The translations under genes were made by a program, and so were the position numbers. From Hyphomicrobiales bacterium (lineage in GTDB: Bacteria; Pseudomonadota; Gammaproteobacteria; Pseudomonadales; Pseudohongiellaceae), in assembly GCA_035555995.1 (NCBI GenBank), contig DATMFX010000168.1, positions 1 to 46,184 on the forward strand: a stretch of DNA of 46,184 bases, written 5' to 3'. The notes beneath the pieces were generated by a model. The model was given only the letters and a program-made list of their open reading frames with translations, was not told the origin of the DNA and ran no database searches. Below are positions 8,189-26,838 of the stretch, piece after piece. Numbering within the stretch: position 1 is the first letter of the stretch; each line of letters opens with the position of its first letter.

Positions 8189-8304
8189 GCCTCTGTCGTC
8201 CCTTTTGACCATCCAGGGGCGTTGATGGCCAGGGATGGCCATCACCGAGCGCACAGGGATGTGCTTGTAGCGTCCCCTGGATGGTCAAAAGGGAGGACAG
8301 AGGC
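8189..8304. repeat. structured intergenic element, copy 1 (long outer stem plus conserved double-hairpin core)
   Basis: The arms 8189-8219 and 8274-8304 pair over 31 bp with 1 mismatch. The core 8216-8277 contains TGATGGCCA-GGGA-TGGCCATCA (8223-8244) and GCACA-GGGA-TGTGC (8251-8264). The core recurs at 24654-24715. Confidence 0.8.
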
Positions 8305-8378
8305 GCAACGGTATCGATGCGGACCAACCCCCCCCAAAGACAACTGATACCGATACTGACCAATCCCCCAAAGACAAT

Positions 8379-11300
8379 TTACTTCGATACCGGCGCAGCA
8401 CGCCCGGCGTCATCCGCTTCGTGACTGGGCAGCCAATGCCCCAGGCGCTTCTGCAACAATGCCAAGCCATCTTCCACTAAAGTGAAGAACACCGGCACGA
8501 TGAACAGGCTCACCATGGTCGACACCATCAGCCCGCCAAGCACCGCCACCCCGATCGGCGCCCGAAAACTCGGATCCCCCGCCCACCCCAAGGCCACCGG
8601 CAGCATGCCCGCCCCCATGGCGATCGACGTCATCACGATCGGCCGCGCCCGCTTGGCGCAGGAATCGAGCATCGCTTCCCGTAGCCCCAGGCCGTGGTCG
8701 CGCTGCGCCATGATCGCGTACTCCACCAGCAGGATGGAGTTCTTGGTGACGATCCCCATCAGCATCAGCAGCCCGATCAGCGAGTTGATCGCCAACCCGT
8801 AGCCCGCCGCCAGCAGCGCCACGATGGCCCCCGCCGCGGAAGGCGGCAATGCCGACAGGATGGTGAGCGGCTGCACGAACTTGTGGAACAGCAATACCAG
8901 AACCGCGTAGATCGACATCACGCCGATCATCATCGCCAAAGCGAAACGGCCGAAGATATCCTGGATGAAGCGCGCATCGCCGGTACGCAGGAAGCTCACG
9001 CCTTCCGGCAGGTTGCGCATGGCGTCAGAGCCTTCCACACGCTGCAGCGTGTCGCCGAGCGGCAAACCATTGAGATTGGCACTCAGGGTAATGTTGCGGC
9101 TGCGGTTGACGCGGGTGATCTGCGCCGGCCCGGACCCCAGGCGCACATCCGCCACGTTCATCAGCGGCACCGGCCCACCGCTGCCCTGCACTGTCAGCAG
9201 GCTGAGGCGTTCGATGTCGCTGCGCGCGGTATCGTTGAGGCGCACGCGGATCGGAATCTGGCGGTTGTCCAGGTTGAAGCGTGCCAGCCCGGTACTTACG
9301 TCGCCGGCCGTGGCGATACGGGTCACAGTGCTGAGCTGGTCGGTGGTCACGCCCAGTTCGGCGGCGCGCAGCGGATCGGGGGTGATGACGATTTCCGGCT
9401 GCAACAGCGCCGCGCTGCTGTTCACCGAGCCGAGACCGGCGATGGTGCGCAGTTCGCGCTCCACCGCTGCCGCGGCCGCATCGAGCCGTTCGGGGTTGTC
9501 GCTCACCAGCGTCATTTCCAGCCGGTCGCCGCCACCGCCGCCCTGGAACTGCAGGCGCGCGCCGGGAATCACGCGGATGGCATCGGCCGCCTTCCGCTCG
9601 AAGATCTGCTGCAGGCCCTTGACGCCCTCGGTATTGTCGAGCTGGATGGTGAGCGTGGCGCTGCGCACCGAACCGCCGCTGCCGGACCCCACGGTGGTGA
9701 ACACACTGCTCACTTCCGGCATATCGCTGATGATGCGGCGCGCCTGTTCACTTACGCGCAAGGTGTCTTCCAGACGCGCGCCCGGCGGCAGCTCCACCGA
9801 CAGCTGGGTGAAGCCGTTGTCGCCGGCCGGCGCGAAGCCGGTAGGCAGAAGGCGGAACAAGGACAGCATCACGCCCATCACCACGCTGGACACGATCACC
9901 ACGATCAGGCGATGCCGCAGGCACCAGGTGACCTTGTCGATGTACCAGCGCAGCAGCCAGGGCTGCTTCTCTTCTTCATGATTCGGCTTGAGTAGATAGG
10001 CCGCCATCATCGGCGTGAGCATGCGCGCCACCAGCAGCGAGAACAGCACGGCGATCGCCACGGTAAAACCGAAGGGCCGGAAGAATTCGCCGGCGATGCC
10101 GCCCATGAACGCCACCGGCACGAACACGGCGCAGATGGTCAGCGTGGTGGCCACCACCGCCAGGCCGATCTCGATGGCCGCGTCCATGGCCGCCTGCCGT
10201 GGCGTCTTGCCCTGGCGCAAATGCCGCACGATGTTCTCCACCTCCACGATGGCATCGTCCACCAGGATGCCCACCACCAGAGTCAGCGCCACCAGGGTGA
10301 GAATGTTGAGCGTGTAACCGAATTGATAGATTACCCAGAACGTGGGGATGATCGACAGCGGCAAGGCGGCAGCGGAAATGAGGGTGGCGCGCCAGTCGCG
10401 CAGGAACACCCACACCACCAGCACCGCCAGAATGGCGCCTTCGATCAGCATTTCCATGGAGGCGTCGTAGGACACCTGGATGTACTCGACCGTGTTGCTG
10501 GCTTCGGCGAATTCCACGTCCGGGTACTTGAGTTTGAGCGCTTCCACCACGGCGCGGCTCTGCTCGGCCACGTCCAGCGCGCTGGCGCCCCAGGCACGCA
10601 CCACCTGGAAGCCCACCACCGGCTTGCCGTCCAGCAATGCCGCCGACCGTTGTTCGCTGGCCTGGTCGCGCACCTCGGCCAATACGTCCAGCCGCACGCT
10701 GCGGCCATCCGGCAGCAGGATCGGCAACGCCTTCAGCTCTTCCACCGAACTGACGATGCCGGTGGTGCGTACCGTTTGTTCCAACCCCCCAAGCCTGGCC
10801 TCGCCGCCGGGGTATTCGGCCTGGATGCGGCGCAGCTGCCGCGAAACGTCCGTGGCGGTGGTGCGCAGCGCCGCGATGCGGTCCGGATCGAGATCCACGC
10901 GGATTTCGCGATCCACGCCGCCCACGCGGGTAAAACGGCCCACGCCCGGCACCGCCGTCAGTTCGCGCGCCAGTTCCAGATCCACGAACCAGGACAGCTC
11001 GGTGTCCGTCATCCGGTCGGAACTGACCGTCCAGGTGACCACCGGCAAACCTGCGGTGGTGGCGCGCGATACGATGGGTTCGTTGGCGTCCTGCGGCAGG
11101 TCGGCGCGGATGGTGGTGAGCGCGTCGCGCACCTCGTCCATGGTCTGGTCGAGATCGGTGCCGAAGATGAACTGGATCACCGTAGTGGACGCGCCCTCGT
11201 TGACCGTGGAACGCAGTTCCTCGATGCCGGCGATGGTGGCCACCGCATCCTCGACGCGGCGGGTCACCTCCGATTCCATCTGCGAGGGCGCTACGCCGGC

Positions 11301-11453
11301 ATAGGTCACGGTGACCACGATGGCCGGAAATTCGATGTCGGGACGGTCGAGCACCCCCAGGCGGGGAAAGCTCACCAGCCCGGCGATGGTGAGGGCGATG
11401 AACATCATCACCACCGGCACCGGGTTGCGGATGGACCAGGTTACGAAATTCAT
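8379..11453 (-). CDS. RND efflux permease, AcrB/HAE1-type
   Basis: 1024 aa with 12-TM RND architecture. The TM4 motif GILVDDAIVEVENI (DD pair) is typical of multidrug HAE1 pumps. It sits directly downstream of a membrane fusion protein gene. Confidence 0.9.
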   Translation of the reverse strand: MNFVTWSIRNPVPVVMMFIALTIAGLVSFPRLGVLDRPDIEFPAIVVTVTYAGVAPSQMESEVTRRVEDAVATIAGIEELRSTVNEGASTTVIQFIFGTDLDQTMDEVRDALTTIRADLPQDANEPIVSRATTAGLPVVTWTVSSDRMTDTELSWFVDLELARELTAVPGVGRFTRVGGVDREIRVDLDPDRIAALRTTATDVSRQLRRIQAEYPGGEARLGGLEQTVRTTGIVSSVEELKALPILLPDGRSVRLDVLAEVRDQASEQRSAALLDGKPVVGFQVVRAWGASALDVAEQSRAVVEALKLKYPDVEFAEASNTVEYIQVSYDASMEMLIEGAILAVLVVWVFLRDWRATLISAAALPLSIIPTFWVIYQFGYTLNILTLVALTLVVGILVDDAIVEVENIVRHLRQGKTPRQAAMDAAIEIGLAVVATTLTICAVFVPVAFMGGIAGEFFRPFGFTVAIAVLFSLLVARMLTPMMAAYLLKPNHEEEKQPWLLRWYIDKVTWCLRHRLIVVIVSSVVMGVMLSLFRLLPTGFAPAGDNGFTQLSVELPPGARLEDTLRVSEQARRIISDMPEVSSVFTTVGSGSGGSVRSATLTIQLDNTEGVKGLQQIFERKAADAIRVIPGARLQFQGGGGGDRLEMTLVSDNPERLDAAAAAVERELRTIAGLGSVNSSAALLQPEIVITPDPLRAAELGVTTDQLSTVTRIATAGDVSTGLARFNLDNRQIPIRVRLNDTARSDIERLSLLTVQGSGGPVPLMNVADVRLGSGPAQITRVNRSRNITLSANLNGLPLGDTLQRVEGSDAMRNLPEGVSFLRTGDARFIQDIFGRFALAMMIGVMSIYAVLVLLFHKFVQPLTILSALPPSAAGAIVALLAAGYGLAINSLIGLLMLMGIVTKNSILLVEYAIMAQRDHGLGLREAMLDSCAKRARPIVMTSIAMGAGMLPVALGWAGDPSFRAPIGVAVLGGLMVSTMVSLFIVPVFFTLVEDGLALLQKRLGHWLPSHEADDAGRAAPVSK

Positions 11454-11454
11454 A

Positions 11455-12561
11455 TCAGCGGACCTCGACCAGATTCACCAGATCGCCATCCTTGAGGAAG
11501 CCCGCGCCGTTGGTAACGATGCGCGCACCGTTCTGCAGGCCGGAGAGCACCTCGATCTCGTCGCCCTGGATGGCGCCGGTCTGGATCATCTGGCGATGCA
11601 CGACGCGCTTGTCGTCCAGCACGAACACATAGTTGTAGCCGTCGCTGCTGACCAGCGCACTGAGCGGCACCAGGATGGCCTGGCTCTGGCCAAGCGCGAT
11701 CCTGCCGCGCGCGAACATGCCGGGACGCAGCGCGGGATCGGCCTCCACGTCCACGTAGATCAGCCCGGTGTGGGTGTTCACGTCCACGGTGGGCGCCACG
11801 ATGCGGATGCGGCCGGTATGTTCCCGACCGTCGACACTGGTCACGCTCACCTGCTGGCCCGGCTCCAGCTCGGGCAACAGCGATTCGGGCACTTCACCGC
11901 GCCATTCGACGCGACTTTGCCGCAGCAGGCGCAGCATTTCCGTGCCCGCCTGCGCAATCTGCCCCACGCTCACGGTGCGGCTGGAAATCACGCCGTCGTC
12001 GGGCGCCAGCACCCGGGCATATTCCAGGCGCAAACGCGCGGACTCGAGATCGGCCCTGGCGGCTTCCACGCTGCCTTCGGCGCCCTGCGCCTCGCTGTTG
12101 AGCTGGTCGAGATCGGCGGCAGACAGCAGGTTCTTACCGGCCAGCGACGTGCCGCGCTCGTACGCCATGCGCGCGTTGTGAGCCGCGGCCTCGCGCTGCT
12201 TCAGCGTGGCCTCGCTCATCTGCAGGGCGGACTGCAGCAGCGCGGTGGACAGGCGCACCAGTTCCTGCCCCCGCTGCACGTCGTCGCCCACGTCCACCAG
12301 CACTTCCTCCACGCGATAGCCGCCCACCTCGGCGGCAATCAGCACTTCCTGCCACGGGTGAATGGTGCCGCTCAGGGTGATGTAGCGGGTAAAGTCGCCG
12401 GCTTCCACCACGTCGGCATTGACGGTCAGGGAAGCTTCGGCGTCGAGCGACGATCCCCCGCCCTGCGGCTGGGCGTGCAGGGAAAAGGCCAAAACATTGA
12501 GAACAGCAAACAGCAAAGGGCCGGCAAAGGCCGGCCGGGTCCGGGAGCGAGGGACGGTCAT
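11455..12561 (-). CDS. RND membrane fusion (periplasmic adaptor) protein
   Basis: 368 aa with a signal-like N-terminus. HlyD/AcrA-type lipoyl and coiled-coil segments are present (VEAGDF..., QRGQELVRLS, ADLESARLRLEYARVLAPDDGVI). Its stop lies 1 nt from the pump ATG. Confidence 0.85.
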   Translation of the reverse strand: MTVPRSRTRPAFAGPLLFAVLNVLAFSLHAQPQGGGSSLDAEASLTVNADVVEAGDFTRYITLSGTIHPWQEVLIAAEVGGYRVEEVLVDVGDDVQRGQELVRLSTALLQSALQMSEATLKQREAAAHNARMAYERGTSLAGKNLLSAADLDQLNSEAQGAEGSVEAARADLESARLRLEYARVLAPDDGVISSRTVSVGQIAQAGTEMLRLLRQSRVEWRGEVPESLLPELEPGQQVSVTSVDGREHTGRIRIVAPTVDVNTHTGLIYVDVEADPALRPGMFARGRIALGQSQAILVPLSALVSSDGYNYVFVLDDKRVVHRQMIQTGAIQGDEIEVLSGLQNGARIVTNGAGFLKDGDLVNLVEVR

Positions 12562-19105: not shown

Positions 19106-22100
19106 TCAGGCAGCGGCGGGAGTGCGATGGAAATGCCGGTAGATCAGCGGCATCAGGAACAGCGTGAGCACGGTGGAACTGATCAGGCCGCCCACCACCA
19201 CGATGGCAAGCGGCTTCTGGATTTCCGAACCGGGACCGGTGGCAAGCAGCAGCGGCACCAGGCCAAGCGCACAGATGCTGGCCGTCATCATCACTGGTCT
19301 AAGGCGCCGCAGCGCGCCGTCGAATACCACCTGGTCGATGTGCAGGCCCTTGGCCAACAGCTGGTTGAAGTACGACAGCATCACCACGCCGTTGAGCACC
19401 GCGATGCCAAGCAGGGCGATGAAACCCACCGACGCCGGCACCGACAGGAATTCGCCGGTGAGCCACAGCGCGATCAAACCGCCGGTGAGCGCAAAGGGAA
19501 TCATGGACAGGATGATCAGCGTCTGTTTGACGGAACGGAACGTCAGGAACAGGATGAAGGCGATCAGCAGCAGCGCCACCGGCACCACCAGCGCCAGCCG
19601 GGCCGCCGCGCGCTGCTGGTTTTCGAATTCGCCGCCCCATTCCAGCGTGTAGCCTTCGGCGAGATCCAATTGCCGGGCCACCGCCTGCTGCGCTTCGGCC
19701 ACGAAGCCGACCAGGTCGCGCCCTTCCACGTTGGTGCGCACCACGGCAAAGCGCTGGCCGCCTTCACGCGAAATCACCACCGGGCCTTCCACGCGCTGGA
19801 TCCGCGCCACTTCCGCCAGCGGCACGTAGCCGCCGTCGGGCAGCGTGACGAGATTCTGCCGCAGCGCGGTTTCGCCGTCTCCCACCAGCGGACGATAGCG
19901 CAGCATCAGCGGCACGCGGGCGCTGCCCTGGATCACGGTGCCCACGCGGTAGCCTTCGATTTCGGCGCGCAGCTGCGTCTGCAGGGCATCGGCATCGAGG
20001 CCAAGCTCGCCCGCGCGCAGGCGATCCACTTCCACCTGCAGGTACTGCGCGCCTTCATTGATGGTGGCGATGGTGTCGATGCTGCCCGGCACCTGATTGA
20101 TGAGGGCGGCCATGGCGTCGGCATAGTGGCTCAGCATGTCGAGGTCGTCGCCGAAGATCTTGATGGCCACGTCGCCGCGCGAACCGGTGAGCATTTCCGA
20201 CACGCGCATGTCGATCGGCTGGGTGAAGCCGAAGTTGATGCCGGGGAAACTGTTCATCACCGCGCGCAGCTTGTCTTCGATGCCCTGCTTGTCGCCGGCT
20301 TCCCACTCATGGCGCGGACGCAGTTGCAGGAACATATCGGTTTCGTTCAGGCCCATGGGGTCCATGCCGATCTCGTCAGAGCCGGTGCGCGATACCACCC
20401 GCAACACTTCCGGCACCGCGTTCATGATCGCTTCTTCGATCAACAGCACCTGGCGCGTACTGCTGCGCAGGTTGACCGAGGGAATGCTTTCGGTCTGGAT
20501 GATCAGGTCGCCTTCGTCCATGGTGGGCATGAAGGTTTTGCCGACGAAGGGAAACAGCAACGCCGTCAGCACCAGCAACAGCGCCGCACCCGCCAGCACC
20601 GGCTTGGGATCGTGCAAGGCGCGGCCAAGCGTGGGCCGGTACAGCGCGTCGAGCTTGCGGCTCAGCCAGGGCTCGGCGTGCGCGTCGGCGCTCAGGCTCC
20701 AGGACGCCACTACGGGAATCAGCGTCAGCGACAGCAGCAGCGAACCGGCCAGCGCGAACACGATGGTCAGGGTCACCGGCCGGAACAGCTTGCCTTCCAA
20801 CCCCTCGAGCGAGAGCAGGGGCAGGAACACGATCATGATGATGAAAATCCCGGAGGTGACCGGCACCGCCACTTCCTTCACCGCGCGGAACACCAGGTGC
20901 AACAGCGGCAGGGGCGAACGCCTGGCCTTCGCGTGCGCCAGCGTGGACACCACGTTTTCCACGATCACGATCGAGGAATCCACCAGCATGCCGATGGCGA
21001 TCACGAGCCCCCCGAGGCTCATCAGGTTGGCGCTCATGTCCAGCCGGTTCATGAGGATGAAGGTAAAGAGCGCGGAGAGCGGCAGCACCAGCGCCACCGT
21101 CAACGCCGCGCGCACGTTGCCGAGGAACAACCCCAACAGCACCACCACCAGCACCACGGCTTCCAGCAGCGCCTTGGCCACGGTTTTCACCGCACCGCCG
21201 ATCAACACGCTGCGGTCGTAGAACACGTTCATGCTGGTGTCCTGCGGCAGCGTGGCTTCCAGCTCCGCCAGCTTGGCATTCACGCCTTCCACCACGGCAT
21301 CGGCATTGGCGCCGCGCAAGCTGATCACCAGCCCCTGCACCGCTTCTTCCACGCCATCGGCGGTAACCGTGCCGTAGCGTTCGAGTTCGCCAAGCTTCAC
21401 TTCCGCCAGTTCGGTGAGCGGCAGCAGCACGCCGTCGCCATTGCGCACCTGAATGCGGCCGAGATCTTCCACATTCACGATCGCGCCGGTGACACGCACC
21501 AGTATCGCTTCCTCGCCCTGGTCGATGCGGCCGGCGCCGTCGTTGCGGTTGTTCAGTTCCAGCGCTTGTACCAGGTCGTCGTGGGTGAAACCCAGCAAGG
21601 TCATGCGCTCGCGCTTCGGCTTCACCTCGAACGTACGCACATAGCCGCCAAGCGCGTTGACGTCGGCCACGCCGGGCACGGTGCGCAGCGCGGGGCGAAT
21701 GGTCCAGTCCAGCAGGAAACGTTTTTCCTCGAGCGACAGCGCCGGATTCTCGATGGTGAACATGAACATGTCGCCAAGCGGCGTGCTCATCGGCGCCAGG
21801 CCGCCGCTGATGCTGCCCGGCAGTTCCTCCCACACGTTGCCGAGCCGCTCGCCCACCTGCTGCCGCGCCCAGTAGATGTCGGTGCCTTCCTCGAAATCGA
21901 GCGTGATCGAGCTGAGCGCATACTTGGAAATGGAACGCAGGATGGATTGCTGCGGAATGCCGAGCAGTTCCACTTCCAGCGGATTGGTGATCAGCGTTTC
22001 CACTTCCTCCGGCGTCATACCCGGCGCCTTGATGATCACCTTTACCTGCGTGGGTGAAATATCGGGGAACGCATCGATCGGCAATTGCAGCATGGCGCTG

Positions 22101-22186
22101 GCGCCGAAGCCGGCAAGCAGCAGCGCCAGCAGGCAAGTAAGCAGGCGCTGGGTCAGCGCAAACTGGATGAGGCCGGCGAACATCAT
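19106..22186 (-). CDS. heavy-metal efflux RND permease, CzcA/CusA family
   Basis: 1026 aa. The N-terminus (MMFAGLIQFALTQRLLTCLLAL...IDAFPDISPTQVKVI) and QPIDMRVSEMLTGSRGDVAIKIFGDDLD are CzcA-family signatures. TM4 reads AIGMLVDSSIVIVEN. Two ATGs are present (22186 and 22183), and GGAGG sits just upstream. Confidence 0.92.
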   Translation of the reverse strand: MMFAGLIQFALTQRLLTCLLALLLAGFGASAMLQLPIDAFPDISPTQVKVIIKAPGMTPEEVETLITNPLEVELLGIPQQSILRSISKYALSSITLDFEEGTDIYWARQQVGERLGNVWEELPGSISGGLAPMSTPLGDMFMFTIENPALSLEEKRFLLDWTIRPALRTVPGVADVNALGGYVRTFEVKPKRERMTLLGFTHDDLVQALELNNRNDGAGRIDQGEEAILVRVTGAIVNVEDLGRIQVRNGDGVLLPLTELAEVKLGELERYGTVTADGVEEAVQGLVISLRGANADAVVEGVNAKLAELEATLPQDTSMNVFYDRSVLIGGAVKTVAKALLEAVVLVVVLLGLFLGNVRAALTVALVLPLSALFTFILMNRLDMSANLMSLGGLVIAIGMLVDSSIVIVENVVSTLAHAKARRSPLPLLHLVFRAVKEVAVPVTSGIFIIMIVFLPLLSLEGLEGKLFRPVTLTIVFALAGSLLLSLTLIPVVASWSLSADAHAEPWLSRKLDALYRPTLGRALHDPKPVLAGAALLLVLTALLFPFVGKTFMPTMDEGDLIIQTESIPSVNLRSSTRQVLLIEEAIMNAVPEVLRVVSRTGSDEIGMDPMGLNETDMFLQLRPRHEWEAGDKQGIEDKLRAVMNSFPGINFGFTQPIDMRVSEMLTGSRGDVAIKIFGDDLDMLSHYADAMAALINQVPGSIDTIATINEGAQYLQVEVDRLRAGELGLDADALQTQLRAEIEGYRVGTVIQGSARVPLMLRYRPLVGDGETALRQNLVTLPDGGYVPLAEVARIQRVEGPVVISREGGQRFAVVRTNVEGRDLVGFVAEAQQAVARQLDLAEGYTLEWGGEFENQQRAAARLALVVPVALLLIAFILFLTFRSVKQTLIILSMIPFALTGGLIALWLTGEFLSVPASVGFIALLGIAVLNGVVMLSYFNQLLAKGLHIDQVVFDGALRRLRPVMMTASICALGLVPLLLATGPGSEIQKPLAIVVVGGLISSTVLTLFLMPLIYRHFHRTPAAA

Positions 22187-23250
22187 TCGCCTCCCAATCC
22201 AAGCACCATCCCCTTGAGCAGGCTGGCGCCGCGCACCACCAGTTGTTCGTTGCCGGCAAGCGCGCCTTCCGGCGCAAGATAATCGGCGCCAAGCGGCTGC
22301 AATTCGAGCACCTTGCGCTCGATGCCGGCGGCAGTGCGAAGGAACACTGCGGTCTCAGCGCCATCGTGCACCACGGCATCGGCGGGAATGCGCCAACCAC
22401 CAGCGGTGGGCGAGAGCACCAGCGAGACGATCTCGCCGGCATGCAGCGGTACGGGACCGTCGAATTCGGCGCGAATGCCAAGCGTTTGCGTGCGACGGTC
22501 CACCTGGCGATCGATCTGACGCAGCGTCAGCGGCGTGTCCACGCCCGGCACGCTCAGCCGCTGTCCAATGGTGAGTCCTGTGGCCAAAGGCGCGGGCAGA
22601 TCGGCCTGCAACCACAATTGCGCCGCGCCAAAACGCAGCAGTGTTTGATCCACACTGATCGCGGACCCCACCGCCACTTCCAGCCGGCCCACCGTGCCGT
22701 CCATCGGCGCGCGCAAGGTATAGACGCCAAGCTGCGGCGAATCCGCGCTGAAACCGCTGCCCGACGCCAGACCCGCAAGCGTCAGCTGCGCGCGCAGTGC
22801 CGCGGCGCTGGCCTTGGCCGCCGCATACTCCTGTTCGGTTTCCTGCAGGCGCCGGGCGGCGATGATGCCGTCGTCGAACAAGCGGCGATCGCGCGCCTCG
22901 GCATTGTGGGCCAGCGTCAGCGCGGCATCGGCCTGCAACCACGCCTGCTGCAGCTGCAACACTTCCTGGCTGTGCACCGTGCCAAGCACGGCACCGGCTT
23001 CCACCGCATCGCCCGGCGCCACCTGCCAGGATTCCAGAACGCCCGCAAAACGCGCCACCAGCGCATCCGGCTGCAAGGGCGACACCAGCACCTGCGCCGA
23101 TACCACCGTGCCGCTGTCGGCGGTGGCGGGCTGCACGGTGGCCAGCACCAGGCCAAGACGATTCATGGTGGCCTGGTCCGGATTGCTCAGCACCTGGGCC
23201 TGGGCACCGCAACAGGCGGCGCACAGTAGCAATAGGGACAGGCGTTTCAT
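22183..23250 (-). CDS. heavy-metal RND membrane fusion protein (CzcB/CusB-like)
   Basis: 355 aa with a signal peptide (MKRLSLLLLCAACCGAQA). It has an adaptor-type coiled coil and barrel (LRAPMDGTVGRLEVAVG). Start/stop overlaps on both sides (ATGA). Confidence 0.85.
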   Translation of the reverse strand: MKRLSLLLLCAACCGAQAQVLSNPDQATMNRLGLVLATVQPATADSGTVVSAQVLVSPLQPDALVARFAGVLESWQVAPGDAVEAGAVLGTVHSQEVLQLQQAWLQADAALTLAHNAEARDRRLFDDGIIAARRLQETEQEYAAAKASAAALRAQLTLAGLASGSGFSADSPQLGVYTLRAPMDGTVGRLEVAVGSAISVDQTLLRFGAAQLWLQADLPAPLATGLTIGQRLSVPGVDTPLTLRQIDRQVDRRTQTLGIRAEFDGPVPLHAGEIVSLVLSPTAGGWRIPADAVVHDGAETAVFLRTAAGIERKVLELQPLGADYLAPEGALAGNEQLVVRGASLLKGMVLGLGGE

Positions 23251-24497
23251 GGCAGCACTCCGATCAATTGGTTGTATTCACTGACGAGCCGGTCGCGCTC
23301 CAGCTGCAATCTACGCAAGGCCTGGCGCGCGCCGATGGCGTCCTGCACCGCGGCAAGCACCTGCGCCAGCGTAAGCTCGCCGCCTTCGAACGCCGACTCC
23401 GCCATCGCACGGCGCTGTTCGGCCAGGGTGTTCTGTTCCTGCGCCAGCGGCAGCGCCTGTTCATTGATGAACAAGCCATGCTCCGCTTCGGCCAGCAGAC
23501 GCTGCAGCTCGATGCGGTTGCGGCGCAGTTCCACCTCGGCATCCACTTGCTCCCGCCGCGCGCTGCTGGTGCGGCTGTCCACCAGTTGCCTGCCGCCGAT
23601 CGGAATGCTGACCGACAACATCACGCTGTCGTTGCTTGGCTGAAAACGATCGCCGCGCTCGCTGTGGCTGCCGAGCGTGAGCTGAGGACTGCCCTTGGCA
23701 TCGAGCGCGCTTTGCGCCACGTTGCCCTGCGCAATGGCCACTTCGGACTGCAACAGGCGCAGCAGGGGATGATTGTCCGGAATGTCGTCCTCGCCACTGA
23801 GCGTTTCGCTGAACGGTTCCGCCGGACGACGGTCGAGTCCGGTCAGGATGAAAATCGTGCGCTCGGCATCGACCATGCGCGCTTCCGTCTCGAGAATGCG
23901 CTGCTGCTGTTCGAGCAGCAGGGTGCGGGTTTGCAGCGTGTCGAGTTGCGCCAGGCTGCCGGCTTCGAACAAACGCTGGGTGATGCGGTGCAGTTCCTCG
24001 GCGGCGCTGCCGGCCTCCCGTTCCAATTCGAGCCCGGCCTGTGCCGCTTCCAGTTCATTGAGCGCGGCGCGCAGGCGGCCGGCCAGTTCCCAATGCAGAT
24101 AGGTGGACCAGAGCGTCACCTGCGCCTGATAGTTTTCCCCCAGCGCCCTGGCCTGACGGCGTTCGCCCGGACGCCACAGCGGTAACTGCACGCCGACATC
24201 CTGCTGCCGCAGCCCCGTGTTGTCGCGCCAGCGGTCGTCGATGAGGTTGTAGATGACGCTGGGACGGCCCGCGACAAGGCTGTTGCCGGCGGCCTGCATG
24301 CCCCGCGCCTGCTGCGCGCGCACCGGCGTTTCCAACGCTTGCGGAGCCCGTTCGAGCGCGGCCTGGAGCATGGCGGAAAAATCGAGCCCTTCCTGAACTT
24401 CCAGATGCACGTGCTCGCCCGGTTCCGCCCGCGCCAATGCGGCAAGCGTTCCCAGCAGCAGCGCCGCCGCGCCATGCACGATGCGTTTGTTCCTCAT
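23247..24497 (-). CDS. TolC-family outer membrane factor (CzcC/CusC-like)
   Basis: From the ATG at 24497: MRNKRIVHGAALLLGTLAALARA is a signal peptide, followed by two OEP repeats rich in coiled-coil LQ.. heptads. The 89 upstream codons of the track ORF read through the intergenic repeat element and are rejected. Confidence 0.85.
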   Translation of the reverse strand: MRNKRIVHGAAALLLGTLAALARAEPGEHVHLEVQEGLDFSAMLQAALERAPQALETPVRAQQARGMQAAGNSLVAGRPSVIYNLIDDRWRDNTGLRQQDVGVQLPLWRPGERRQARALGENYQAQVTLWSTYLHWELAGRLRAALNELEAAQAGLELEREAGSAAEELHRITQRLFEAGSLAQLDTLQTRTLLLEQQQRILETEARMVDAERTIFILTGLDRRPAEPFSETLSGEDDIPDNHPLLRLLQSEVAIAQGNVAQSALDAKGSPQLTLGSHSERGDRFQPSNDSVMLSVSIPIGGRQLVDSRTSSARREQVDAEVELRRNRIELQRLLAEAEHGLFINEQALPLAQEQNTLAEQRRAMAESAFEGGELTLAQVLAAVQDAIGARQALRRLQLERDRLVSEYNQLIGVLP

Positions 24498-24549
24498 ACT
24501 TTCGGTCCACGATGCTCGAATGACAGCGCGGCAGTCTACGCAGGGGCAT

Positions 24550-24566
24550 GTGAAAATTTTGTCAAA
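24550..24566 (-). promoter_or_regulatory. direct-repeat box TTGAC-N6-TTCAC upstream of the outer membrane factor gene (candidate OmpR-family regulator site)
   Basis: Read on the minus strand: TTTGACAAAATTTTCAC. The half-sites lie at 24565-24561 and 24554-24550, 11 bp start to start, 53-69 nt upstream of the ATG at 24497. It mirrors the box at 24826-24852. Confidence 0.4.
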
Positions 24567-24625
24567 GGGGTATAGACGAGAGATCAAAGAAACGATGCCG
24601 TGCGTAACTTCGATGCCAACGGCTC

Positions 24626-24743
24626 GCAGCCGCCAGGCCGGATACCCTTTCGGGGGGCATTGATGGCCAGGGATGGCCATCACTGAGCGCACATGGATGT
24701 GCTTGTAGCGTCCCCCCGGAAGGGTATCCGGCCTGGTGGCTGC
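24626..24743. repeat. structured intergenic element, copy 2
   Basis: The core 24654-24715 matches 8216-8277 at 59/62 positions. Its hairpins are at 24661-24682 and 24689-24702. The outer arms 24626-24653 and 24716-24743 are complementary over about 32 bp (two positions would be G-U) but unrelated to the copy-1 arms. Confidence 0.8.
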
Positions 24744-24825
24744 AACAGACTCGATGCGGGCCAATATTCATCCCCAACCAAGCGACTGCCACAGACTCAA
24801 TACGGGCCACCCTCCAACCCACCAC

Positions 24826-24852
24826 TTCACAAATTTTTCACCCTTTACTGAC
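24826..24852 (+). promoter_or_regulatory. three 11-bp-phased direct repeats TTCAC-N6-TTCAC-N6-CTGAC upstream of the response regulator gene
   Basis: The half-sites lie at 24826-24830, 24837-24841 and 24848-24852. The third overlaps the candidate -35. Confidence 0.4.
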
Positions 24853-24877
24853 AAATCCTCGACCCACGCTGTAGCAT
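24848..24877 (+). promoter_or_regulatory. sigma70-like promoter CTGACA-18 nt-TAGCAT for the OmpR-type operon
   Basis: The hexamers lie at 24848-24853 and 24872-24877. GGAG at 24893-24896 precedes the ATG at 24903. Confidence 0.3.
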
Positions 24878-24902
24878 CCTCCTGCACTTCCCGGAGCCTC
24901 TC

Positions 24903-25580
24903 ATGCAGATATTGGTGGTCGAAGACAACCGCGACATTGCCGAGAACATCGCCGACTATCTCGAACCCCTGGGCCACACCCTCGATTTCGCCGCGGACGG
25001 CATCAGCGGCCTGCACCTCGCCATCACCCGCCGCTTCGACGTCATCGTGCTCGACGTCATGCTCCCCGGCATGGACGGCATGACGCTCTGCCGCAAGCTC
25101 CGCGAGGAAGCCGGCAACTACACCCCCGTGCTCATGCTCACCGCCCGCGACCAGCTCGACGACAAGCTGGCCGGCTTCCGCGCCGGCAGCGACGACTACC
25201 TCGTCAAACCCTTCTCGGTGAAGGAACTCGAAGTGCGCCTGCAGGCGCTGGTGAAACGCGCCACGCAGGCCACGCGCCACCGGGTGCTGCAGCTCGCCGA
25301 CCTCGAATTCAACGCCGACACCCAGCAGGCCCATCGCGGCGGCGCGCTGCTGGAACTCAATCCGATACAGCGCAAGTTGCTCGAACTGCTGCTCGGCAAC
25401 AGTCATCGTGTGGTCTCGCGCGAAGAATTGGAGCGCCACATCTGGGGCGAGATACCGCCCGACTCGGACGTGTTGCGCACGCACATCTACGGTCTGCGCA
25501 ACGCCATCGACAAACACTACGAGCCGAAACTGCTGCACACCGTGCACGGTTCGGGGTATCGGCTGTATGACCCCCGCTGA
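24903..25580 (+). CDS. OmpR/PhoB-family response regulator (CzcR/CusR-like by context)
   Basis: MQILVVEDNRDIAENI...VIVLDVMLPGMDG is a receiver domain. A winged-helix output follows (LELNPIQRKLLELL...VHGSGYRL). It is divergent from the metal RND operon. Confidence 0.92.
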   Translation: MQILVVEDNRDIAENIADYLEPLGHTLDFAADGISGLHLAITRRFDVIVLDVMLPGMDGMTLCRKLREEAGNYTPVLMLTARDQLDDKLAGFRAGSDDYLVKPFSVKELEVRLQALVKRATQATRHRVLQLADLEFNADTQQAHRGGALLELNPIQRKLLELLLGNSHRVVSREELERHIWGEIPPDSDVLRTHIYGLRNAIDKHYEPKLLHTVHGSGYRLYDPR

Positions 25581-26838
25581 ACCCTGGCGCACCACGCTCC
25601 GCCTGCGCATCATCCTGGCGCTGGTGCTGATCGTCACCACCATGAGCACACTGCTCGCCTACGGCGTGCTCGAAATCAAGAATCGGTTGGAAGCCACCGT
25701 GCTCGCCGATACCGTGCGCATCCAGCTCGTTGATCTGCAACAGCAGCGCGAGGCCGGCGATTACCATGTCGAACATTTATTTGAAAACTGGGCGTTCTAT
25801 TTCGACGAAGGCCTGGCCGACATGCCGGCAGCGCTGCGCGAACTTGGACCGGGGTCTCACCACAGCGCCTATGCCGATGGGCGCTATTACCAGGTGGAAG
25901 TGGGCGAGGACAGCGCCGGCAAGCCGCTGGTGCTCGCCTACGACATCACCACCTGGGAACGGCAGGAGCATGAAGTGTTGACCCTGCTGGTGTGGGGCGT
26001 CGTGCTGCAGTTGCTGGTGGCGATCCTGCTCGGCTGGCAGGCGTCGCGTGCGATCCTGGCGCCGGTGCGCGCCCTGACCCGGCGCCTGGCGGGCATTCAG
26101 CCAAATCAGCGCCAGGTGCGCATCGCGCAGGATTTCCAGGGCACCGAGATCGGCATCATTGCCGGCGAATTCGATCAATATCTGGCGCGGCTCGATCGTT
26201 TCGTGGAACGCGAACGGTCGTTTACCGCGGCGGCAAGCCACGAATTGCGCACGCCGCTGTCGGTGATGATTGGCGCGCTGGACATCCTCGACAATGCGCC
26301 ACTGAGCGGCCCCGCCGAGCGCGCCCGCAGCCGCATCCATCGTGCCTGCGCCGAGATGAAGGCGTTCATCGAAGCCACCCTGTACCTGTCCCGCGAAGAC
26401 GGCACCACGATCCAGGAACAGCACAGCTGCGCGCTGCGTCCGCTGATCGACGATCTGATCGACAGCCATCAGAACGCGCTGCAGGCGCGGCATATCGTGG
26501 TGGAAATCCAGGAAAGCGGTGCCGTGGTGGTGGAGCAGGCGCCGAGCCTGATGCGCATCCTGCTCGGCAACCTGCTGCGCAACGCCATCGAGCACACGCA
26601 GAACGGCTACCTCCGCATTTCGTTCACGCCCACGCTGATCATGGTGGAAGACAGCGGCAACGGCATTCCCCGTGAGGACCTGCCGCGCGTGTTCGAGCGC
26701 AGCTACACCACCAAGAAGGATGGCTACGGCCTCGGCCTGAACCTGGTCAAGCGCATCTGTGACCGCGTCGGCTGGCAGGTGGACATCCAGAGCGAAGTGG
26801 GCAAGGGCACGCAGGTGCGGCTGTTCCTGCAGCCCTGA
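25567..26838 (+). CDS. sensor histidine kinase (periplasmic sensor, HAMP, HisKA, HATPase)
   Basis: The ATG at 25567 overlaps the regulator gene end by 14 nt. Two TM helices flank a loop of about 150 aa. The H box is FTAAASHELRTPLS, with the N box LLRNAIEHT and G boxes DSGNGI / GYGLGL. Confidence 0.88.
   Translation: MTPAEPWRTTLRLRIILALVLIVTTMSTLLAYGVLEIKNRLEATVLADTVRIQLVDLQQQREAGDYHVEHLFENWAFYFDEGLADMPAALRELGPGSHHSAYADGRYYQVEVGEDSAGKPLVLAYDITTWERQEHEVLTLLVWGVVLQLLVAILLGWQASRAILAPVRALTRRLAGIQPNQRQVRIAQDFQGTEIGIIAGEFDQYLARLDRFVERERSFTAAASHELRTPLSVMIGALDILDNAPLSGPAERARSRIHRACAEMKAFIEATLYLSREDGTTIQEQHSCALRPLIDDLIDSHQNALQARHIVVEIQESGAVVVEQAPSLMRILLGNLLRNAIEHTQNGYLRISFTPTLIMVEDSGNGIPREDLPRVFERSYTTKKDGYGLGLNLVKRICDRVGWQVDIQSEVGKGTQVRLFLQP

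Follow-up and report, generated by a model that had tools for sequence, protein, structure and literature searches.

Interspersed repeats of bacterial genomes are normally recognised by their conserved ends. Repetitive extragenic palindromes (REPs), for example, are simple hairpins of 20–40 nt in which the stem sequence and an unpaired tag are conserved. This tag (GTAG or CGTC) is found at one end of the palindrome, and a head-to-head arrangement has been reported as predominant for GTAG and CGTC REPs (PMC3733652). Among structured RNAs, the sites bound by CsrA/RsmA proteins have a SELEX consensus (RUACARGGAUGU), in which ACA and GGA are invariant and the hexaloop is closed by AC/GU, and one CsrA dimer bridges two sites lying 10–63 nt apart (PMC7652899). 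In this study, an intergenic element of ~110 nt, present in two copies (8189–8304 and 24626–24743) in a 46,184-nt stretch of DNA (contig DATMFX010000168.1, hereafter the window), was analysed and compared with these systems.

Both copies are members of a large, apparently undescribed family of intergenic elements in marine Gammaproteobacteria, and we consider it almost certain that the element is a genuine member of such a family and is selected as a structure on one strand. The family inverts the rule of conserved ends, as its structured centre (the core) is conserved and its outer stem is kept only as a stem; for this reason it has probably escaped both repeat finders and RNA-motif pipelines. 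A pattern that is the reverse of REPs and MITEs (miniature transposable elements with inverted repeats), the centre being conserved and the termini free, had already been pointed out in a first-pass annotation of the window, and the family-wide comparison bears it out.

Structure of the element

On the strand carrying the GGA motifs, each copy folds into a tight three-way junction composed of a clamp helix (P1) and two hairpins (P2, or hairpin 1, and P3, or hairpin 2), joined by linkers of 0, 1 (A57) and 2 nt. P1 has a different sequence in every copy. Across its 28 aligned pairs, 96.7–97% of the cells are paired and all 28 pairs vary on both sides, as compared with ~40% pairing when the partners were slid by 1–3 columns and ~60–63% when they were shuffled. 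The pairing preserved under changed sequence, for which covariation had been one of two suggested explanations, is therefore genuine covariation. As to whether the arms always pair, a check that had also been proposed, a P1 helix of at least 18 bp was found in 108 of the 110 copies with enough flanking sequence, its length being typically 25–32 bp with a mode of 28. A weak consensus is nevertheless shared by the arms: GG at positions 11–12, CTTTCC at 18–23 (read as GGAAAG on the 3' arm) and, adjoining the junction, a run of purines. It follows that the arms are homologous, albeit highly diverged. The earlier statement that they are unrelated between copies holds for their sequences, which differ, and fails with respect to this family consensus.

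P2 is an irregular helix of 12 pairs, 11 of which covary, and its central 3x3 region is either Watson-Crick paired or purine-rich, often with GGA facing GGA. The inner helix of P3 covaries as well: at pair 61-72, 96 copies have CG and 15 have UA, at pair 62-71, 106 have AU and 5 have CG, and neither pair contains unpaired cells. Further out, P3 carries a 5-nt bulge of the form YUYRY, which is CUUGU in the window, and two outer pairs, G58-C80 and C59-G79, and at position 60/78 G.A alternates with C-G. Both hexaloops read A-N-G-G-A-Y in the 111 aligned copies, with N free (U, G, A, C). The G-G-A is invariant in the P3 loop (111/111) and present in the P2 loop of nearly all copies that have a letter there (107–109), and the GGA motifs of P2 and P3 are always 24 nt apart. 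The stems covary also in divergent copies, e.g. L029:1137-1244. Of the REP-type tetranucleotides, GTAG is found in the bulge and outer helix of P3, and the CGTC/TGTC with which P2 begins takes part in base pairing and covaries.

Several structural variants were observed. Insertions of 14–50 nt within hairpin 1 are carried by L016:2377-2536, L038:1967-2100 and L116:1704-1827, hairpin 1 has been lost at L026:81-174, and at L008 a tandem partial duplicate (hairpin 2 and the right arm) lies ~30 nt 3' of the copy at 167-276.

Family size and hosts

Species-representative genomes were scanned with an exact pattern of 20 specified bases (hairpin 2 and the tail), and the core was found at 116 loci at least. 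Among the matches listed, 72 belong to Marinobacter, according to record titles. Other hosts among these matches are: (i) Halieaceae (Haliea, Parahaliea, Pseudohaliea, Halioglobus and Chromatocurvus), (ii) Microbulbifer, (iii) Marinimicrobium, (iv) Ketobacter/Ketobacteraceae, (v) Sedimenticola metagenome-assembled genomes (MAGs), (vi) a Halomonadaceae isolate and (vii) unclassified Gammaproteobacteria, with single outlying matches in one Shewanella fragment and one Dongiaceae MAG contig. The exact 20-nt core string is thus common to several families and orders among the matches listed; the requirement for this string under-samples divergent branches and makes the core conservation partly a matter of construction, and copies found with models relax both effects. 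The Shewanella waksmanii locus (L019:4700-4900) comprises only the hairpin 2 module and the tail with short arms, beside an antisense-type hairpin (loop ATCCAT); it is a relic, rearranged or degenerate, that falls outside the family's main range of hosts.

From 93 gap-free copies, a core hidden Markov model (HMM) and a covariance model were constructed and then run on 860 kb of DNA fetched around the loci. This search, in which the covariance-model E-values are rough, yielded 160 core matches, i.e. about one additional copy per 20 kb. The element, which had been regarded as a two-copy structure, therefore has at least 160 copies in the fetched DNA, and by extrapolation there may be of the order of 100 or more per genome. 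The copies are located in intergenic spacers of chromosomes, including spacers within housekeeping operons and between convergent genes. A window copy and a Marinobacter copy were both used to query the PLSDB plasmids and the INPHARED phages, and neither collection contained a match. Searches of Rfam 15 at gathering and permissive thresholds, with the window and 18 related loci holding dozens of copies, gave no matching family and returned only miRNA-hairpin noise and tRNAs. Searches of the literature, one of them with an exact sequence string, did not turn up any description of the element.

Evolution of the copies

Many copies occupy orthologous positions in different species, e.g. upstream of eno (in six Marinobacter species), in spacers of the his operon and in the ahcY-metF spacer. 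Between such orthologous copies the core is 93–100% identical, the adjacent non-coding DNA is saturated and the identity of P1 ranges from 100% down to ~40%. In 22 locus pairs listed as orthologous, 170 compensated and 52 uncompensated positions were counted among the P1 differences; these totals are approximate, as a few of the pairs have low far-flank identity and one (L002/L095) is not orthologous. In the pair L036/L054 all 16 differences are compensated and none is uncompensated. The identity of the core and the compensated changes in the arms indicate long-term constraint on the core and on the pairing, and not on the arm sequence. An apparent total replacement of the arms between 96%-identical relatives, at L002/L095, was discarded, since the short BLAST match fell on the core of non-orthologous loci.

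Copies have been gained and lost between species of one genus. Filled and empty orthologous sites were identified, the clearest case being L034 (filled) versus L022 and L106 (empty), where the empty spacers are 10–30 nt long and contain neither arm. There are no near-identical copies within a genome and hence no sign of recent copy-and-paste, arm similarity being 0.505 within genomes and 0.490 between genomes. The arms of head-to-head partners are slightly more similar than those of random pairs, which suggests that head-to-head pairs arise by local inverted duplication. Apart from two local partial duplications (L008 and L047), the arms showed no excess similarity to nearby DNA. No target-site duplications were detected (within-copy flank similarity of 5.98 versus 5.85 in cross-copy controls), and clustering of 758 neighbouring open reading frames (ORFs), ten of which were read by translation, revealed no recurrent transposase-like family. 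Outside the elements, the 860 kb of related DNA contained only six simple hairpins with stems of 15–20 bp, which are ordinary and terminator-like.

Strand selection and orientation

Mismatches in P1 are strongly asymmetric: G.T/T.G combinations were found 89 times and A.C/C.A combinations 12 times. This excess means that the fold of the GGA-carrying strand matters. A cruciform or a both-strand requirement was set aside, because either of them, like symmetric mutation, would give equal numbers of G.T and A.C. The GGA-carrying strand is thus selected as a folded single strand, which could be RNA or DNA. No replication-strand bias was found (38 vs 41 copies, with GC skew as a proxy).

Gene calls at the loci are longest-ORF heuristics; the 10 flanking ORF translations that were read are recognisable housekeeping proteins. 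The first-pass annotation had stated that both copies abut operons for RND efflux systems. This is correct for the window and does not extend to the family, whose neighbours elsewhere are eno, the his operon, urease (ure), ahcY-metF and genes of acyl-CoA metabolism, and the link to RND efflux is coincidental.

Possible function of the element

The reading that we narrowly favour, tentatively, is that of a REP-like dispersed RNA module which binds CsrA. In this model the selected single strand would be RNA, and the two loops would form a dual binding site for one CsrA/RsmA dimer. P1 would act as an insulating clamp presenting both loops whatever the flanking transcript, and its 28-bp duplex would also make it a plausible site for RNase III or a barrier to exonucleases. 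The element might tag or stabilise transcripts carrying sense copies, and the copies might collectively buffer CsrA. At the DNA level, slow REP-like spread would be expected, e.g. by the local inverted duplication that would produce head-to-head pairs.

The resemblance to CsrA sites concerns both loops. P3 reads (G)CACA(G/U)GGAUGU, which is essentially the SELEX optimum in its preferred hexaloop hairpin, and in copy 1 of the window the P3 sequence ACAGGGAUGU is compatible with the SELEX consensus; P2 reads CCA-N-GGAUGG. The spacing of 24 nt between the GGA motifs is within the 10–63 nt range for a CsrA dimer, the sole freely variable loop position is the N of the A-N-GGA rule, and fixed loops are combined with covarying stems, as in Rsm small RNAs (sRNAs). 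Conservation of the core across orders also fits a highly conserved host ligand such as CsrA better than a fast-co-evolving transposase.

A number of observations weigh against CsrA binding by an RNA. The resemblance was a post hoc observation. Between co-directional genes, single copies have no preferred orientation (30 sense and 23 antisense), and antisense copies inside real operons (ahcY-metF, ureC-ureE and methylcrotonyl-CoA carboxylase) are equally well conserved. These antisense copies retain the bias of G.T over A.C (26 vs 3), so that in these cases selection does not act on the operon mRNA. Neighbouring copies are arranged head-to-head, (-)(+), in 21 cases, in tandem in 2 and never as (+)(-); such prevalence, as in REP dimers, points to a DNA-level process. 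With 97% Watson-Crick and 3% G.U pairs, P1 is unusually perfect for a bacterial RNA helix. Finally, the upstream columns carry no information and hence no conserved sequence, a sigma-70-like promoter was found upstream of only 1 of 140 copies, no GacA box was found near any copy, and the copies have no intrinsic terminator.

Almost as likely is the explanation that the selected strand is DNA. The element would then be a REP-like repeat, either non-autonomous or domesticated, which folds when transiently single-stranded, and its CsrA likeness would be coincidental. The like-looped hairpins would be the target of a dimeric enzyme specific for single strands, e.g. a REP-associated tyrosine transposase (RAYT) or IS200-type HUH/Y1 transposase, or another hairpin-binding nuclease or recombinase. 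The two similar same-strand hairpins recall the left-end and right-end hairpins of IS200/IS605. Several properties of the family speak for single-stranded DNA (ssDNA): (i) the extrapolated copy number, of the order of hundreds per genome, and the strictly intergenic location, (ii) the random orientation relative to transcription and GC skew, (iii) the strand-specific tolerance of G.T, which is independent of the transcription of neighbours, (iv) head-to-head dimers without tail-to-tail ones, (v) presence and absence varying among species of one genus and (vi) the lack of an accompanying promoter. These are countered by the lack of a recurrent transposase-like family among the 758 clustered ORFs next to the elements, by the lack of target-site duplications and of recently copied pairs, by the lack of replication-strand bias and by the absence of the element from the plasmid and phage collections searched. 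Moreover, constraint on the resident copies has outlasted neutral saturation, and selfish DNA offers no explanation for this. The variable part consists of the arms, where the ends to be recognised would be expected, and conservation of the core extends across orders, while REP classes tend to be lineage-specific.

A generic REP-like hairpin, of RNA or DNA, is an unlikely alternative. The element would be a stabiliser of mRNA 3' ends or intercistronic regions, an RNase III site or a supercoiling site, the clamp helix would be the functional part, working in either orientation, and the core would bind another factor. This agrees with the location of copies in short spacers, 10–80 nt from gene ends, both convergent and intercistronic and in both orientations, with a 28-bp helix that forms on either strand and with the REP-parallel behaviour of the family. 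However, a helix acting in the neighbouring mRNA should flip the wobble bias in antisense copies, and no flip was seen; the invariant A-N-GGA-Y loops and the conserved bulge and junction would also be left unexplained. The last alternative, put forward in the first-pass annotation, is that long palindromes existed first and a small mobile core was inserted into their loops; some insertion sequences target REP loops and the arm sequences do differ between copies, yet the orthologous empty sites without either arm, the lack of any coreless 28-bp P1-like palindrome in the 860 kb, the arm length fixed at 25–32 bp with a weak family consensus, and arms unrelated to nearby DNA make it highly improbable.

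Returning to the CsrA-binding module, it is possible, although far from assured, that hundreds of promoterless, clamp-insulated two-site CsrA/RsmA modules in operon spacers form a distributed CsrA buffer or transcript tag conserved across orders; an equally novel alternative would be an ssDNA repeat whose structured core is read by an enzyme and whose 28-bp stem need only pair. If the loops bind CsrA, the family would represent a new distributed layer of the Csr/Rsm network and a natural portable protein-binding RNA module; to our knowledge, no Csr sRNAs have been characterised in the host organisms. If the substrate is ssDNA, a structure-reading enzyme that is as yet unknown and a new kind of REP-like system would be implied. 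In either case, an estimated 100 or more copies per genome occur in ecologically important marine genera, and, with its more than 100 independent helices of 28 bp, the family constitutes a large natural data set for the study of compensatory evolution.

The two copies of the window and their surroundings

All features of the window copies are given for the + strand. In copy 1 the 5' arm of P1 (8189–8219) is complementary to the 3' arm (8274–8304), and recomputation returned the 31 paired nucleotides with one mismatch reported earlier; P1 covaries across the family. P2 (8220–8247; loop AGGGAT at 8231–8236) belongs to the hairpin in which 11 of the 12 pairs covary and the loop follows A-N-GGA-Y. 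P3 (8249–8271; loop AGGGAT at 8255–8260) includes the 5-nt bulge CTTGT (8264–8268) and the outer pairs G8249-C8271 and C8250-G8270. The segment described earlier as an unpaired CTTGTAGCG following hairpin 2 is mostly this bulge, lying within an extended hairpin 2. In copy 2 the arms 24626–24657 and 24712–24743 pair over 32 nt with 94% complementarity, again in line with the earlier description, and enclose P2 (24658–24685; loop AGGGAT at 24669–24674) and P3 (24687–24709; loop ATGGAT at 24693–24698).

Between the arms, each copy has 54 nt of core. The shared core extends over 8220–8277 and 24658–24715, and the near-identity noted in the first pass was reproduced: 3 positions differ between the copies, the variable N of loop 2 among them. 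In the 46-kb window, both core halves are present exactly 2 times, as compared with 0 expected, and a covariance-model search of the window recovered the two known copies and no third one. Both hairpins were found as first described, and the minimum free energy (MFE) folds are markedly more stable than shuffles (z = -8.4 for copy 1 and -6.8 for copy 2).

The gene context is also as originally given. Copy 1 is located between purA (+) and an AcrB-type pump gene (-), both converging on it, and copy 2 is flanked by an outer-membrane-factor gene (-) and by an OmpR-type response regulator gene (+), both diverging from it. The window contains two RND efflux operons: the first (8379–12561) encodes an AcrB-type pump and a membrane-fusion protein, and the second (19106–26838) encodes a pump, a membrane-fusion protein and an outer-membrane factor. 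The latter adjoins an OmpR-type response regulator/histidine kinase pair, in a czc/cus-like layout.

The 3' flanks of the two window copies are ~73% alike (GCAACNGNNTCGATGCGGNCCAA). Alignment of the two copies defined a shared, lineage-specific flank motif, GCAACGGTATCGATGCGGACCAA at 8305–8327 for copy 1 and GCAACAGACTCGATGCGGGCCAA at 24742–24764 for copy 2. Directly 3' of each copy there are tandem imperfect direct repeats of ~34–46 nt, the pairs being 8331–8356/8365–8390 (81% identity) and 24740–24774/24786–24820 (77%). The repeat unit includes TCGAT(G/A)CGG(G/A)CCA, and a similar word (TCGATGCC / TGAAGCG) is present just 5' of P1. These flanks are lineage-specific, and none were seen at Marinobacter or Marinimicrobium copies. 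In addition, a 16-nt A/T-rich inverted repeat (GTGAAAATTTTGTCAA / TTCACAAATTTTTCAC, at 24550–24565 and 24826–24841, 88% complementary) brackets the region of copy 2. It lies in the divergent promoter region of the outer-membrane-factor and response-regulator genes and may represent putative regulator binding sites.

Sequences flanking other copies

A GATATC-like motif is weakly enriched upstream of the element. In non-Marinobacter copies (L008, L009, L013, L047, L095, L097 and others), TGGCAC/TTGCAC words are enriched within 35 nt upstream of P1, GGCAC occurring 12 times as compared with 1 in a distal control. The TGGCAC-type word resembles the 5' strand of hairpin 2 (GCGCAC), and its spacing misfits a sigma-54 promoter. 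A sigma-54 promoter was accordingly rejected as a candidate, the enriched TGGCAC/TTGCA words not forming sigma-54 sites.

In Marinobacter, a strand-specific motif AGGCY(N)RG was found from +1 to +45 nt past the 3' arm of P1 in 18 of 68 copies (e.g. L050, L057, L084 and L087); control windows gave 2–3 of 68 and the other strand 0. A small C-rich/G-rich hairpin (CCCA...CAGGCTGGG) usually carries the motif in its loop, and the motif may be a lineage-specific 3' extension of the element.

A classical GTAG-type Marinobacter REP palindrome (GTAGGTCGGATTAGCG..CGTAATCCGACCTAC) is often located 5' of the element, at a distance of 25–55 nt, or centrally within a head-to-head pair. Examples are the head-to-head spacers L075:908-1025, L094:850-961, L031:1771-1891 and L043:5262-5373 and the 5' flanks of L017, L027, L044, L064 and L074. 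A second, ordinary REP family therefore coexists with the element and is frequently adjacent to it. A tRNA gene lies ~100 nt from a head-to-head pair at L003:4064-4136 and L090:3229-3301, which are orthologous loci of two Marinobacter species.

Comparison with known systems

Several known classes were considered and rejected. Group II intron domain V, self-cleaving ribozymes and T-box/CCA pairing were dismissed on sequence grounds, as was the origin of the arms from spacer capture. Integron attC sites have conserved R''/R' boxes (RYYYAAC...GTTRRRY) at their outer ends and are arrayed in one orientation beside intI, whereas the outer P1 columns of the element lack a consensus and its copies are scattered in either orientation.

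MITEs and long palindromic repeats (ERIC, Correia/NEMIS, RUP and BOX) are similar to the element in being ~100–150 nt long, dispersed and intergenic, and in having termini that pair into a long stem; such repeats are often co-transcribed. They differ in keeping terminal inverted repeats, target-site duplications, near-identical recent copies and a parent insertion sequence (IS), none of which were found for the element. A MITE was rejected on these grounds: the P1 termini are the least conserved part, there are no target-site duplications or near-identical copies, and no recurrent transposase-like family was seen among the 758 neighbouring ORFs.

The IS200/IS605-derived palindrome-associated transposable elements (PATEs) share with the element two similar same-strand hairpins, a strand-specific single-stranded logic and the lack of target duplication. 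Unlike in PATEs, no tnpA/tnpB genes were found nearby and no conserved cleavage tetranucleotides were identified, and a covarying 28-bp clamp is not a PATE feature.

The Csr/Rsm sRNAs (CsrB/CsrC and RsmX/Y/Z) and the dual-site CsrA mRNA leaders of the glgC type are like the element in presenting A-N-GGA in hairpin loops with ACA...UGU flanks, in having two sites at a spacing that a dimer can bridge and in combining covarying stems with fixed loops. These sRNAs are, however, the products of one to few dedicated genes with GacA/UvrY-dependent promoters and terminators, and they carry many GGA sites and no long clamp. In contrast, the elements are promoterless two-site modules, present, by extrapolation, in hundreds of copies and in either orientation, and they match no Rfam Csr/Rsm model. 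A Csr/Rsm sRNA gene was rejected for want of a GacA box, a terminator, conserved upstream sequence and an Rfam match.

REPs, together with bacterial interspersed mosaic elements (BIMEs) and REPINs, resemble the element in most aspects of their distribution. They are high-copy, intergenic and chromosomal, they are found in both orientations, within operons as well as between convergent genes, their dimers are mostly head-to-head and rarely head-to-tail, the structure is defined on one strand, copies persist for long at orthologous sites, and GTAG is present in the core. The element differs from them in being a 110-nt junction with a variable outer stem and a conserved centre, in having its GTAG in an internal bulge, in the lack of a RAYT gene among the ORFs of the loci and in the conservation of its core across orders. 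It is therefore filed as a new variant of interspersed structured intergenic repeat, standing outside any named family.

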